A stretch of 47,970 nt of DNA, counting the filler, from Porpidia crustulata (lineage: Eukaryota): assembly GCA_964255105.1 (NCBI GenBank). It is 2 parts of 2 records of this genome, joined end to end, with 100 filler letters (N's around TTAATTAATTAA, not from the genome) between each part and the next. Parts side by side here need not be neighbours in the genome. Positions count along the whole stretch, not along the records: positions 24,065 to 47,970 come from CAXUWE010000066.1; 1 more part is not named here. One strand, 5' to 3'. A model generated the notes under the pieces. The model was given only the letters and a program-made list of their open reading frames with translations, searched no databases and was not told where the DNA came from. A program made the position numbers and the translations under genes. Below, in pieces: positions 23,965-46,784 of this stretch (position 1 is the stretch's first letter; every line of letters starts with the position of its first letter).

Positions 23965-24064
23965 NNNNNNNNNNNNNNNNNNNNNNNNNNNNNNNNNNNN
24001 NNNNNNNNTTAATTAATTAANNNNNNNNNNNNNNNNNNNNNNNNNNNNNNNNNNNNNNNNNNNN
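23965..24064. other. Assembly gap with artificial six-frame-stop linker
   Basis: 44 N + TTAATTAATTAA (24009-24020) + 44 N = exactly 100 nt. A purine-only low-complexity tract (~23815-23915) precedes it. Confidence 0.95.
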
Positions 24065-40094: not shown

Positions 40095-40802
40095 TCACTC
40101 ACTAGCACTACCGCCTATCTTGCTCTCACGGTCTCTCTTCTCTTGCTCAATCTCAATCGCTTCCGCTTCTGCCATTGCTAGTATGGGCGACTTTGCCTCC
40201 TTAATCTCCGACTCAGTTACCCATTTCGCCTCTGCGATGATGCTACCATCCGACCTGAAATACCTCCTCTTTGATGGCGTATCCTTCGCGTCTCTGATCA
40301 CGTCCATACACTTTATAAAAATATCTGCTTCCTTATTCGTCATTCTGGCGCCACCGATAATATGATCTCTTTCTCCTTCTGATTTGTTGGATCCGTCTGT
40401 CGTATAAGCCCGTGAGAATATTCCCCGAAAGGTGTCGCCGACCAGCAGCTTATACAGATCGTCGTCTGGGTCATCAAAGCCCATATTGTAACTGAGGCCG
40501 ACACACGTGGAGATCTCGTGGGTTCTGTTCACGAGCCTTTCGGCAAAAGTAACTAGTAGCATCACATTCCTGTCAGCCTTGACTGAAGTGGGCTCTAGAA
40601 GCTGTGGTAGACACTGAGATGATTCATTCGAACCTCCTTCGATCTCCTTCACCGGAGAACCTTCGCAACCAGTCTTCTCGAGGAAGTACTCTACTAAAGG
40701 TTCTCTGGCCCGTATTTGAGCCCTAATGATGGTAGGTCGGCCAATAAAATTCGTCAGAATCCTTGCTACTTTGCGCGGAAGAGCAAGTTTTGAAAGACCC
40801 AT
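40095..40802 (-). CDS. Hypothetical protein (orphan, ~235 aa)
   Basis: Long open frame (277 codons from the first ATG at 40928; the ATG at 40802 is more plausible) with protein-like composition and a charged helical C-terminus. No recognisable domain. Confidence 0.55.
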   Translation of the reverse strand: MGLSKLALPRKVARILTNFIGRPTIIRAQIRAREPLVEYFLEKTGCEGSPVKEIEGGSNESSQCLPQLLEPTSVKADRNVMLLVTFAERLVNRTHEISTCVGLSYNMGFDDPDDDLYKLLVGDTFRGIFSRAYTTDGSNKSEGERDHIIGGARMTNKEADIFIKCMDVIRDAKDTPSKRRYFRSDGSIIAEAKWVTESEIKEAKSPILAMAEAEAIEIEQEKRDRESKIGGSASE

Positions 40803-41240
40803 GTTAAGTGATAGTCTCTGACTTGCAATTTTGTCCAATATCTTATGGATTTGAAGCTGAACATAGGAGGATACGTAAAGGATGAAAAGTACTGAAGGAT
40901 TGGTTATGGGAGCCCACTCTAGCGGCATGTAGGAGCAAACAGAGCCTGCATCCAGTCCAACATGATAGATGACGTACTAACTCGAAATAGATGACGAAGT
41001 GACTCAGAAGCTTCTGAACCCCATATCTGGAACAAACTTGAAAGCATTTACATTCTTACCTCGTATCGTTTCTATCAATGCTAACAAGCCGGTGAGAGAT
41101 AGACCCTCATTGAGGGATGGACCTTCGTGGGAAGGGATGAATCTTAGTTAGTGGGTCCACTCCCACACCTATCTTTCGCACTCCAAAACAACTCTCAACA
41201 CAGTCCCTGAATCGCCGATGATTGAATCCGTCGAATGATT

Positions 41241-41403
41241 TATCCCTTCGTCTGACAAACGAAGGGCCACCAGGATTATCGGCATCGTACCTACATCGAT
41301 TACTGCCCAAGCTTCGGTCTTACCATCATAGATTTCGTGTATATTTGTTTAGGTACTGTGCCCGACAATCCTGGTGGCCCTTTGTTTGCCAGACGAAGGG
41401 ATA
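41241..41403. mobile_element. MITE (159 bp between TA target duplications) with ~54-bp TIRs
   Basis: TA|TCCCTTCGTCTGACAAACGAAGGGCCACCAGGATTATCGG... (41240-41293) is the near-perfect reverse complement of 41350-41404. TA lies at both ends (41241-42, 41402-03), with a ~56-bp spacer. Confidence 0.85.
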
Positions 41404-42046
41404 AGGCTCAGAAGTTCCTTTGGTTTAGCCATTTGCAGAAGATAATCAACCACACGACGATCAGATAAGATGATCATTCTGTGAGCCCCGTGCCAGAGAA
41501 CGCTGGGACATTAATCGCGATAAATAGAAGCAATAGAGACAACGCCGTTGATCTTCGAACAACGAAGAGAATAAAGGAAACATGTAGAGAATTCACCGAG
41601 TAGGATGATAATACCAAGCTTGACAATTCATCACAAAGAATGGGTTGAGGTCAGGCGATTTTTCGGCAACCAAAGACATGCTGTTATCTGTCCATCGATT
41701 TTCAGAGAACCGAAAGCAGCCACAATCAGCAATCATCTGTATGACTACCACTGCGTCTTGACTCTACGCACTAGATTTTGAGAAAAACACAAAAATGTAT
41801 CAGTACGATTCGATCATACTCCAAAAAACCGGCATCACTTAGCCACTGAATCAATAATATGTAAATTCGTCATGAAGGACAGATGCTAGAAGAAAAGAGA
41901 ATGCAAGAAATATCCACGACTTTCATTTGGTGTTTGACAGTCGATCCTGTGCTCAAAATGAATCAAGCGCCACCCGCGCGCACGACTATGAGGAAAATGG
42001 ACTTATACTACCCTCACGAAACTTAGCTTATGACCGAGCAACACCC

Positions 42047-43117
42047 TCACGCATACCTCATCTGATCCCTTCCCAAATCCCGCAAAACAATATTCCACTT
42101 TCTTTCATACCCAACGTGATTATGCCCCCCACCCACGCAATCATTCCTTACCCACCGCCTATGCTCAACACACCAGAACGTCCGCTCCCAACTCAAATAC
42201 TCGTACGTCGCCCAATCGCTCCACCCCCTCTCACCCTGAAACTCTTTCCGCATGCCGGGGAGGTCGAACGCGCCTCGGTGCCGGAGTTCCCTGAACATGG
42301 CGAGATCGTGACGATGGCTTAGATTGGTGAGATAGGCACCATGTTTGAGCAGAGGCAGCGTCGCTCCATCGCGGCGCAAGGCGAGGTATTGAACGACGGA
42401 GCCGAGGGCGCCGTTGCTCTTGCTGCTTTTGAACCACTCTTTTCCACCCGGGGGACTTCGCGGATGACGGAGCTTGCGCAGGATGTTCTCGTCGCTTAAG
42501 TCAGGCAGTGAGGGTTTCTGGATTTTTTGGCTTTCGCGGTCGGAGCCACGCGCTTCGTCGTCGTCGGCGGTGTTGGATCGCCAGGTTTCCCAGTCGTGCT
42601 TCCTGTACGTGTTCGAATAATCCCCCTCAATGATGGAGGCGGTGTTGATGTCCTTAATATCGAAATTTTCGATCTCCAGATCACTGTCCCCTTTGTCTTT
42701 CCCCTCGTCATCGTCCTCCTTGCCCTTGAAAACTGAAGAAAGCGACAGCCTACGCCCTCTACTATCGAAGAGATCGACGCGGCATTCAGCACAATGATGT
42801 TTTAAAGAATCGAAAAGTCATGATAAAATACATTCATGATGACATACGCGATCGCAGCACGACATTTAAATCAGACTATTTTCTTGAACGTACGATTTTG
42901 CATCACAAAAAGCACAGAATTTCTTGTCTTCAGAAGTCTCTATCATTGGAATTAATTTAAAATTAAAGACGCACTAACGAACGTCGTGCATATGCTTCGC
43001 TTGCTCGCGCGAGTCTCAGTCGTTTTAGTAATGATTCGCAGACTTTCAGTCGTCGTCTTTAAAATTTTGCAGATCGAGATTCGCAGAAAATTCATTTATG
43101 ATTCTAAGATGATACAT
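42047..43117 (-). pseudogene. RING-finger protein pseudogene
   Basis: Single frame from ATG 43117: ...KFCAFC...LI*MSCCDRVCHHECILS*LF....HHCAECRVDLF, then an acidic linker and an open C-terminal half. Six in-frame stops, all between 42818 and ~43050, and no frameshift. Confidence 0.72.
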
Positions 43118-44489
43118 TTTAATCGATCGTGAACGAGATTGCTGTGAATACGTGATTGAGTTTCGTTTATCGAGTTTTAAGGATGACGACAATTGATATG
43201 TCGAAGAAGAGACATTGACATGACATAAGAATGAGTATTTACATTCTCACAGACGAGTTAAAAGATGATACTGTGAGAACAAGTTTATTGTGAGTAGAAA
43301 AAGGAATTCATGATGAGCTAGGAAAAAAGAATTGAACAAGACAAAGAGAACAAAGCTCCCCCAATCGAATACCACAATCATCATTATACGCGACGAGGCC
43401 GGGTTTGAGGACATGTGAGCAGTCGAACGACCTTTGAAAACCGTGGACGTTCTCCTATCGAATATCTTAACCATGAGGTCATCAAAACTCGACAATTCAA
43501 CGACGGACGAATCGACAACCTCGAGCGCAAGATTTGCCTTACCTTTGCGCATCGTATCTCCAATTCCCAGCTCCAGGTTTCCCGAATCATTCTGAACAGT
43601 AGTCACAAAACATCAGATCCATCTGTACATGAATTCTCAGAGACTCGAGCTAATGCAGTCTGCGACTTATGAGTCCGACGGATCTCGTGAGTTAATGAGA
43701 TGGGGTTTCGAATTCATGTCGCATACGACGGGGAACATGGCCTGGCTTGTAAGATGATATATATCATACACCCCAAACTTAGGATTTGCAGGAGCCTGAA
43801 TTAGCTGCCCGGCTCAGTCTCCTGCTGCCTAGAAGTCTCCAAGTTCCAGCCCTTGCGATAACGTTAATGATCGGGATCCCTTGCATTTGGCGGGAAGAGG
43901 CGCTCATTAATGGACCGCTTACAGGTTGTTCAAGGTGCGATGTCGAACATCGTGGGGATTCTTAGACAGTCACGCATCTACCTACGGCCACGCGTGCATA
44001 CTTGCGCTGGAAACAACCTTATACAAAAAATAAATCAAATCATCAATCGCCATATGGAGAAGTGGGTGCAAAAGTAATAATACTAGACTGGATAGCTAGA
44101 ATTCCGACTGCTTGCATAGTAAGCAGAGACCTTGTTATGTGTTGGTCTGTCTTTTCCGGTGCCTTTTTCTCACAAAGGCATCGTCTATCGAAAACGCTCC
44201 CAGTCGAATGCAAAGCCACTCAATGGATCTTTTGCCTCGAGAATGAAGATCTGTCGGCTACTGATCGCCTAAAAGCTTTGATGGCTCGCGGCGACCTTAA
44301 GCAGCACTTTTATTGTAAGTATCTCCGCCATCATTCAGACAGTCAGCCAATCGCGTGCTCCCATCCCCGGTACGACGTCAAGTTAGCTGGCACGATATAT
44401 TATATACACCCGAACTTAAGATTAAAATTGCCGTTCCAGGTCGGGAAAGGGAGCAGGCCCTCTTTAGCGGAAGCAGCGAGGGAGCAAAA

Positions 44490-44691
44490 GGGTAGCGGTT
44501 ATTTTCAGACACTTGTCTTTTATTTATAAACACCCTTTGAAGTAAACTTTTTATCTTCAATAATATTTTTAATCTTTTTCAATAGTGAATCTCAAGGCAA
44601 CATTATTACGGTTTAAATAGCCGCAGGAACAGAGGGTACCTGTAAATAAAATTCGAAGGTTCTGTAAATTAAAAAAAAGTGTCTGAAAATA
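44490..44691. mobile_element. AT-rich MITE-like element (~200 bp)
   Basis: Perfect 15-bp inverted repeat TATTTTCAGACACTT (44490-44504 / 44677-44691), extending imperfectly to ~40 bp. TA at both outer ends; AT-rich interior. Confidence 0.65.
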
Positions 44692-44994
44692 CGTAGTTTT
44701 GGTGTCGACCTCCGTATATCAGCCCACTGGTTACTCAGGAGGGCCCAGTATAGAGAGCCTGAGTTGACTTGCTTTGCCCGGCTATACTTACTGCCGCACA
44801 TTCACCAAGTTTGCTGCCTAGCACAGCCCCCTCGACGACATGAATATTCTGAAGGGGGCGTGTTGAGAATACCATAGAAGTCTTTTGTCACGAGAGAGAT
44901 CATGAGTGATCGCTAGAACAGTGTTAAAGAGCGTGCCAGATGAAGCCCCAGAATAAAATTGGGGTCGAATCTGTTTCGATCATATACAGTCTTT

Positions 44995-46784
44995 CTATAT
45001 GTTATAGGAAAATTGTATGTCAGTCTCAAGCTGTTTAAGCATATCAGGTATGTCATGAAGGGTAGGTCGCCTTTTTGCCGCAGCTTGGATACTGTTGTGG
45101 TCCTCGCCACATACTCTCGCCTCTAAGAAGTCCTCTGCTTCGGCAACCCGGATCTTCCACCACGTCTTCGCTGCTCGTTGTGTCCTTGATTCATCTCCTT
45201 CGACCGTACCTCCAGCTTCACCAACGGGGACGAAGACGCCCCTTTCAAGATCAATATACACACTCCTACCTCTCGAGAGATCCAACTCGTTTGCCCCAGC
45301 TATGCATCTTTCAATCCAGCCCTTCAACACCTCCGGTATCCTTCAGATTTCCGGAAACCGCCACGAGCGCTCTTCATCAATCCACGTAGCTACTTCTCGC
45401 GTCATGCACTGACCAGCATCCGTGTAGATGGTAGGCTGTTAATCGAAAATACACCAGAGCGTCTAACCCAACGCAAAAACCGTGGCTGATTCGCACTCCC
45501 TGGCTGAGAGTCGCGTCCAAGCGATATCGCCGGAAGAAGTCGCCTCAGGAGAAGTAGCTACAAGCCGCTGAAGGGCGCTTTTGTAACGTCCAGCGACCTC
45601 ACTCCGAATTGCGGTAGACTTTACTATCAAACCTAGATACCAGATGCAATCGACCTCGGGCGCAATCCATGAGATCCAGCCTCGGCGCTGCTTAAAATCA
45701 ATCAGTACGGCATCGCCATCAGCGGTCAACATGACGTTGTCGGGCTTCAAGTCGCCATGATACTTTGCTATCGTGTGCTTGTGGATATGGAGGAAGGCGG
45801 AGGTGATTTGGCGGGACCAACGGATGCGGTCGAGAAACGGTGTAGTGCACTCGACGCTCAGAGCCTCAAGAAGTGAACCACCGTGATAGTAGGGAAGGAT
45901 GAAATCGCAGATGCCGAGTTTGGGAGTCCCCGTGACGACGTACAGCGGTCGAGCGGAGATATTCGGGGGTGAAGCCATGGAAAGTAGAAGTTTCAGCTCG
46001 TGGTATGTTGTCGTAAGGTTGGAGGCGAAACGAGCCGGCTGAACAACCTTGAATACGAAGAGGGTGGTTTGGTCGAGGAGAAGTTGAATAGAGACGATGC
46101 TGATGAGTTTATTTTTATGGTCGATTAGCTCGAGGCTCGAGAGTTGTATCGATTCAATAGCTAGATCTAGTTCCTGATCCGTTGGCGACTGCCAAACCTC
46201 TTGCAGCTCCTTTAAGGACAACAATTCGTGGTCAAGCTCACGTTCGGAGCCATGCTAATCTGGATATTGTGGACATCGCTGGCGATGTTCTGGACTACGA
46301 TGCGCGATCTGAATGGCAGGCTCAGGTATTTTCTCTCAAAGTTGGGAATATGTGAGGACCACACCGTCAGGCCATGCAGGACGTGTCGAGAGATACCTAG
46401 ATTGGCGACTTGACTTGACGGGCATTTCATAGTCGCGCCAGATTGGAGAAGCAGACGCAGCGCATGAGGGTGCTGTCTTTGGTCTGGGATGTAGACATCG
46501 ATATGGAGAGGTGGACGGCCAATGGCAAAACGCGGATACGTATAGAATTGTCTGCCGTTGCCAAAACATCCTGACAGTCTCCACTGTATGAGTGTCGTAA
46601 AACCAATAGCAGATACTAGAGTGTCAACTTGGTTCTTAGGATTCAGTGGGGAAATGTTCCATACATTGCTGTTTGGAGGTTCGGATTTGCTAATATTAGG
46701 TAGCAGCTCATCTGGGGGTGCTAGGGGTAGTACAGCTGCCACTGGACTCCTAAGCGTTCTATAGACAAGTTGCGACGGCTCCAT
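44995..46784 (-). pseudogene. Fungal protein kinase-like pseudogene
   Basis: FVFK, YHELKLLL, YHGDLKPDNVML, LIDFKQ, W.APEV, VFALG*TLWCIF and terminal RPTL. Frameshift near 46240, plus three in-frame stops (TAG 45463-45465, then TAA and TGA shortly downstream). Confidence 0.82.

Follow-up and report, generated by a model that had tools for sequence, protein, structure and literature searches.

Half of a lichen-type fungal gene was probably wrecked by C-to-T mutation aimed at CpC, like several transposon copies of the same genome

Introduction

What process could remove nearly every CC and GG dinucleotide from one half of a gene and leave the other half untouched? The question is raised by a locus in the window analyzed here, a stretch of 47,970 nt from the genome assembly of Porpidia crustulata (GCA_964255105.1), and it bears on how RIP is recognized. 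Common RIP tools score only the loss of CpA and the gain of TpA. Under such scoring, a process that attacks CpC first would be called RIP-negative, which would bias estimates of RIP and of cryptic sex. A CpC-first process would also provide a natural contrast for the open question of what sets the sequence context of RIP.

Results and Discussion

Composition and Boundaries of the Tract

An earlier note, made from the sequence alone, had described positions 42783-43320 as nearly devoid of CC and GG while CA/TG and CG remain plentiful, and counting bears this out. In these 538 nt (35% GC), CC is found 0 times and GG three times (positions 42948, 43181, and 43303) when compared to 13.4 and 20.5 expected, respectively, and both strands are affected. 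Observed/expected ratios (o/e) are 1.29 for CA, 1.07 for TG, and 1.81 for CG; TC (1.40) and GA (1.61) are enriched and TA (0.57) is low. The ratio (CpC+GpG)/(TpC+GpA) is 0.03 in the tract versus 0.76 in the remaining window. The earlier note would have been undermined by CC and GG counts that are not significantly low for the base composition; in 100,000 mononucleotide shuffles of the tract, the CC+GG count had a mean of 33.6 (SD 4.9) and a minimum of 14, so that chance composition is excluded. Among 4,566 other 538-nt windows, the lowest CC+GG o/e was 0.58.

The abrupt bounds that had been described were recovered by a change-point fit, which placed the left edge at 42756-42808 and the right edge at 43277-43359. 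A contig of the X1 run spans 42198-45000 at single-copy depth with zero differing letters, which counts against a local assembly slip, although X1 is possibly the source run and the agreement is then not independent. The tract is delimited as follows:

42782..43303, no strand: core CC/GG-depleted tract, with outer limits of 42757-43358 (dinucleotide counts, shuffles, and change-point fit)
43118..43358, no strand: upstream non-coding section of the tract (GG positions and change-point fit)

Damage to the RING-Finger Gene

At this locus, the damage extends into a host gene and has a sharp edge at either end. The tract spans approximately 190-240 nt of upstream DNA together with the N-terminus and the RING domain of the gene, the features of which are:

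42047..43117, minus strand: broken RING-finger protein gene with the conserved C-terminal domain of a fungal family (relatives and alignment; probable start ATG at 43117)
42782..42916, minus strand: RING domain, inside the tract, with Cys/His ligands retained (alignment to relatives)
42047..42757, minus strand: untouched 3' half, with 236 open codons, 21 Gly, 9 Trp, and a CC/GG o/e of 1.0
42803..42820, minus strand: six codons reading stop-L-F-D-S-L versus W-L-S-G-P-L in the relative P0002, with four differences, for each of which CpC>TpC suffices
42866..43048, minus strand: five further in-frame stops (TGA 43046-48, TAA 43025-27, TGA 43016-18, TAG 42974-76, and TAA 42866-68)

The gene has 17 relatives at E<=0.001, the best of which is P0002 (E 5.8e-37). 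P0002 matches the Pfam domain zf-RING_2 above cut-off, whereas the mutated copy in the window reaches only E 0.26. The 120 codons within the tract include 6 stops (three TGA, two TAA, and one TAG); Gly and Trp are absent from them and Pro occurs once, while the codons 3' of the tract include 0 stops, in agreement with the earlier note. That note had also placed TGA 42818-42820 at the conserved Trp of the RING domain, and Trp is indeed present in 12 of 12 aligned relatives. The second lesion that it proposed, MSCC in place of MPCC, stands in part: the Ser codon TCG is matched by Pro in 8 of the 12 relatives, while P0002, the closest of them, has Gly there. Gly, Pro, and Trp residues of P0002 are retained at 0 of 13 positions in the tract versus 15 of 22 in the 3' half. 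From the sequence, we infer that the tract carries clustered, directional C:G>T:A transitions.

Half of the in-frame stops (two TAA and one TAG; 3/6) are not products of CpC mutation, and TAA 42866-68 lies at a Gln of P0002, a CpA-type change. An invariant RING Pro has become Ala in the tract copy by transversion, and, of the 70 differences between the tract and the distant P0002, 50 are other than C>T and represent ordinary divergence. A foreign insertion as the origin of the tract was ruled out, since the reading frame and the RING motif run unbroken across the left edge.

An alignment query recovered 11 distant loci (40-43%) from metagenomes; these are too far for DNA comparison, and CC/GG-poor tracts are absent from all 11 (lowest 200-nt o/e of 0.40-0.73). 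A metagenome scan with a single protein query yielded no matches, word-based homologue searches gave no result, and the ESM Atlas returned generic RING clusters only.

Mutation Spectrum in Repeat Pairs

Because searches turned up no intact tract copy, the mutation spectrum was measured on other repeats of the same genome. The pooled spectrum comprises four alignments from two copy pairs, one Copia and one MITE, both of which were initially picked out as CC-poor copies. In the first 180 nt of the Copia pair (G000:C1701 versus C1852), C>T/G>A changes number 28, against a single reverse transition and a single transversion; by context, 20/22 CpC, 4/24 CpA, 4/25 CpT, and 0/22 CpG sites are changed. 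In the MITE pair (L060 versus L068), 37 of 57 CpC sites are changed. The earlier note had proposed a C>T process that prefers CpC, an idea against which CpA-dominated or context-free alignments would speak. The pooled counts favor CpC over CpA by 65/95 to 11/70, with CpT at 9/91 and CpG at 3/60. When CpC is compared to all other contexts (23/221), Fisher's p is 6.5e-25, a value computed over non-independent sites. The best reading of the target order is CpC first, then CpA and CpT, and CpG least. CpC is a preference and not exclusive, in that CpA and CpT are changed at 10-16%.

C>T and G>A changes are both present within the same repeat copy. Among 35 isolated CC dinucleotides, 20 became TC, 6 became TT, 6 are unchanged, 3 show other changes, and 0 became CT, which indicates that the 5' C of CC is the target. 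Changes at CCG and TCG total 1/33, and CpA and CpT sites exhibit a weak 5'-pyrimidine bias (16/80 versus 4/81). In a third repeat family that was already CC-poor, further changes fell on CpT (13/17), which suggests that later rounds consume secondary targets. Only 0-2 of 25 CpC sites are changed in 13 LTR-only matches of approximately 186 nt; the sparing of these matches is consistent with a length threshold, which is given as approximately 400 bp for N. crassa in PMC3318451.

An all-against-all repeat scan blind to context revealed no long CpA-dominated pair. It lists asymmetric pairs without clear context (L058 versus L064: CA 2/17, CC 6/26, CG 2/12, and CT 7/23) and short pairs with CA at 3/6 to 4/6.

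The Copia rates, imposed on the 3' half of the gene itself, predict a GC content of 0.37 and o/e values of 0.13 for CC/GG, 2.43 for CG, and 1.62 for TC/GA, when compared to 0.37, 0.08, 2.04, and 1.48 observed in the tract; CA/TG is underpredicted (0.85 versus 1.05 observed). Alternative models applied to the same 3' half yield a CC/GG value of 1.24 with CpA preference and 0.99 when context-free. The CpC model expects about 3.5 TGA, 0.9 TAA, and 0.3 TAG, and 3, 2, and 1 are observed.

Of three Copia RT loci, all with open frames, two were profiled, and neither is depleted. The RVT_1 search brought up two sequences only, a telomerase-like gene and a DIRS-like element, neither of which is depleted across its coding part. 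The latter (L009/L010; G000:C783), which we take from its motifs to be a DIRS-like RT-RNaseH-tyrosine-recombinase element, has two TGA in its RT match, and its coding part is normal in CC/GG; immediately upstream of it is a CC/GG-poor repeat family that is AT-rich and has 6 matches. At positions 296-642 of L017 (G000:C1701), an unmutated repeat is nested within a mutated Copia LTR, indicating that its insertion postdates the burst of mutation. Positions 451-790 of L017 are CG-poor.

Occurrence in the Genome and RIP Indices

A sample of 100 contigs, selected by number and totaling 550,378 nt (2.4% of the assembly; C1302 was skipped, having already been fetched as a targeted hit), holds 14 CC/GG-poor tracts, defined by a CC+GG o/e of <=0.3 in a 200-nt window. 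These tracts total 3,460 nt and some are marginal. Five block shuffles, a null that ignores codon structure, yielded 0, 0, 0, 1, and 0 such tracts, and the 550,378-nt sample contains 0 CA/TG-poor or CT/AG-poor tracts. The RIPper cut-offs (PMC6714961) are passed by one 500-nt window among the 2,052 sampled. For the tract itself, the product index is 0.54, the substrate index is 1.29, and the composite index is -0.74; as the earlier note had anticipated, standard indices miss the tract and are negative, because TpA is not overproduced. The canonical RIP signature, namely a preference for CpA, high TpA/ApT, and low (CpA+TpG)/(ApC+GpT), is thus absent. The process acts in the manner of RIP, yet it lacks the preference for CpA by which canonical RIP is defined. 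The assembly is small (22.9 Mb) and fragmented (2,447 contigs), so heavily mutated AT-rich compartments may be absent from it.

Further long CC/GG-poor tracts are located at L074:2231-2840, L143:391-830, L098:1091-1570, L099:91-550, and L068:1081-1530, and several of the long tracts adjoin LTRs or MITEs. In one L098 frame, there are six stops, and every one is TGA. Searches found no partner copy for the L074 patch and, for the L098 patch, no partner besides protein matches of 27-43%. In 80 sampled contigs, 22 CG-poor 200-nt tracts were identified, a raw count without a null. The tract nearest to a CpA-type relic, L020:3617-3771, is AT-rich with CA/TG of 0.61 and TA of 1.17.

Origin of the Tract

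We consider it probable that the tract is the scar of a RIP-like defense that prefers the 5' C of CpC and that acted on a former duplicate. A piece of 520-600 nt, from the upstream region to the end of the RING domain, would once have been present twice, and homology pairing would have set the limits of the mutated piece. Cytosines 5' of another C would then have been converted to T on both strands, probably through a cytosine methyltransferase for which RID is the first candidate, and the timing may have been premeiotic. The partner copy would later have been lost or would lie outside the fragmented assembly; a partner that segregated away, or that the assembly lacks, would account for the failed searches.

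Of the earlier proposal that a mutator acted on a partially duplicated segment, the CpC-preferring process is upheld, but no partner copy of the tract was found. DNA searches showed the partner to be absent from the assembly, and protein searches returned other RING genes only (31-39% identical). A second tract copy was found neither by a low-stringency and purine/pyrimidine-reduced search of the window nor among X1 contigs at 80% likeness. No pair of repeats flanks the tract in 40500-45500. The repeats in its vicinity are:

41240..41404, no strand: palindromic MITE-like repeat, not CC/GG-depleted (neighbor)
43756..43870, plus strand: remnant of a second MITE-like family, not depleted, approximately 400 nt from the tract
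44395..44487, plus strand: terminus of another copy of the second MITE-like family, not depleted (23 matches in the genome)

Spread of mutation from the neighboring MITEs was ruled out, as these and the intervening DNA are normal in CC/GG. At 44500-44691, directly after the truncated MITE end, AT-rich DNA carries 27-nt inverted repeat arms 138 nt apart and is possibly another small element. A split kinase-like gene is located at 45463-46784 (minus strand), a 171-aa piece of which matches Pfam Pkinase. Contigs C65 and C66 are joined across runs of N at 23965-24064, so the two halves of the window need not be adjacent.

The same mutator could instead have acted on a more widely mutated allele or paralogue, which then donated the piece by gene conversion or double crossover. 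The two sharp edges, the length of approximately 0.55 kb, which is typical of conversion tracts, and the missing partner would all fit. This account requires an extra event, and DNA and protein searches found no donor mutated over a greater length; we regard it as unlikely.

Local hypermutation independent of homology, in which a heterochromatin-guided DIM-2-like methyltransferase or a deaminase acted on a short single-copy domain, appears improbable. Several patches lack partners and several lie beside transposon ends, as would be expected, and DIM-2-dependent RIP is described as mutating single-copy linkers, a property shared with the tract (10.1101/344036). According to the same source, however, DIM-2-dependent RIP in N. 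crassa still requires homology, in the form of close direct repeats, and favors CpA more. The lack of a flanking repeat pair here departs from linker RIP, the neighboring MITEs and the gap between them and the tract are undepleted, and both strands are near saturation, unlike the outcome of a single-strand burst.

Damage of UV type or APOBEC3G type at CC, chance composition, or assembly error is very improbable: CC>TT doublets (6/35) and the weak 5'-pyrimidine bias would suit such damage, but it changes the 3' C of a dipyrimidine, whereas CC>CT is 0/35, CCG/TCG changes are rare, and TC is enriched, and the shuffles and the letter-for-letter match of the X1 contig stand against the other two.

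Relation to Known RIP Systems

The process that we favor for the tract shares several properties with RID-dependent RIP in N. crassa, including dense C:G>T:A changes that run in one direction and hit both strands, sharply defined limits, the sparing of short repeats, and a RID homologue in the genome. Work by Clutterbuck from 2011 reportedly treats CpC double mutations and describes wide variation in context. The order of targets in N. crassa RIP is CpA>CpT>CpG>CpC (PMC5496416), unlike the order observed here, where CpC is first and CpG is last. RIP-like contexts reported elsewhere include CpT in Magnaporthe, Botrytis, and Sclerotinia, CpG in Tuber, TpCpG in Pucciniomycotina, and CpA and CpG to similar degrees in Trichoderma reesei (PMC4352252; PMC3318451; PMC5496416). 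A lineage-specific shift of target is common to these signatures and the tract, and CpC is dominant in none of them as described in the available texts. The term 'CpC' is absent from the main text of PMC4352252, and PMC3318451, citing the 2011 work by Clutterbuck, notes considerable target variation among ascomycetes. A survey of 1,239 fungal species reports, in its available text, that RIP-like defenses have in common that CpA is preferred (PMC12543289), while in PMC5737583 CpC falls in two species and CpA dominates. RIPCAL defines a CpC index (PMC2621366), such that alignment-based tools could detect a CpC process.

RIP, RID, and DIM-2 have been reported in the lichen fungi Cladonia rangiformis and Xanthoria (PMC12542154; PMC13486527). 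There, RIP was identified from GC content or from regions of the RIPper type; neither main text contains the word 'dinucleotide', and the available passages give no context. A full-text literature search did not find CpC-dominant RIP, nor was it found in the available texts of PMC7882544, PMC6714961, PMC13535494, PMC5555474, PMC5602860, and PMC5381539; an earlier report of a CpC-biased species is possible.

Cytosine Methyltransferases

A PF00145 profile search recovered three loci (L004, L005, and L006). Inspection of the RID/DIM-2 complement, which the earlier note had recommended, identified an intact RID-type gene, L005. This open, 675-aa gene is of RID/DmtA type and carries PCQ and EQT motifs. 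L004, a long open frame, is presumably DIM-2, judging by its architecture. The nearest named relatives of L005 are from lichen fungi (Usnea, 59%; Circinaria, 56%; Lecanora, 58%), and over its catalytic region it shares 48% identity with Histoplasma DmtA. A quick RID tree, whose backbone is weak, does not assign L005 or L006 to either paralogue clade.

It is conceivable, if somewhat doubtful, that a lineage of lichen fungi harbors a CpC-retargeted RID-type methyltransferase, that surveys based on CpA do not see this defense, and that the defense reaches host genes via small partial duplications. The switch in context may map to the target-recognition loop of RID or to the loss of one of two RID paralogues. 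A residue scan of L005 revealed 9 positions that deviate from a majority of at least 75%.

Several lichen fungi (Lecanora helva and Teloschistaceae) encode two RID-like paralogues, one long and one short, that form two clades. L006 (G000:C851:5838-9332, plus strand) is a second, broken RID-like gene with TAG/TAA stops, normal CC/GG, and a long branch. One of the 9 deviating L005 positions lies in the target-recognition region, in the loop after the conserved T-x-T: Asp is found there, whereas Gly is the residue in 78% of 116 relatives; this loop varies widely, and the substitution is thus a lead only. The two closest unnamed relatives of L005 have Ala at the same loop position.
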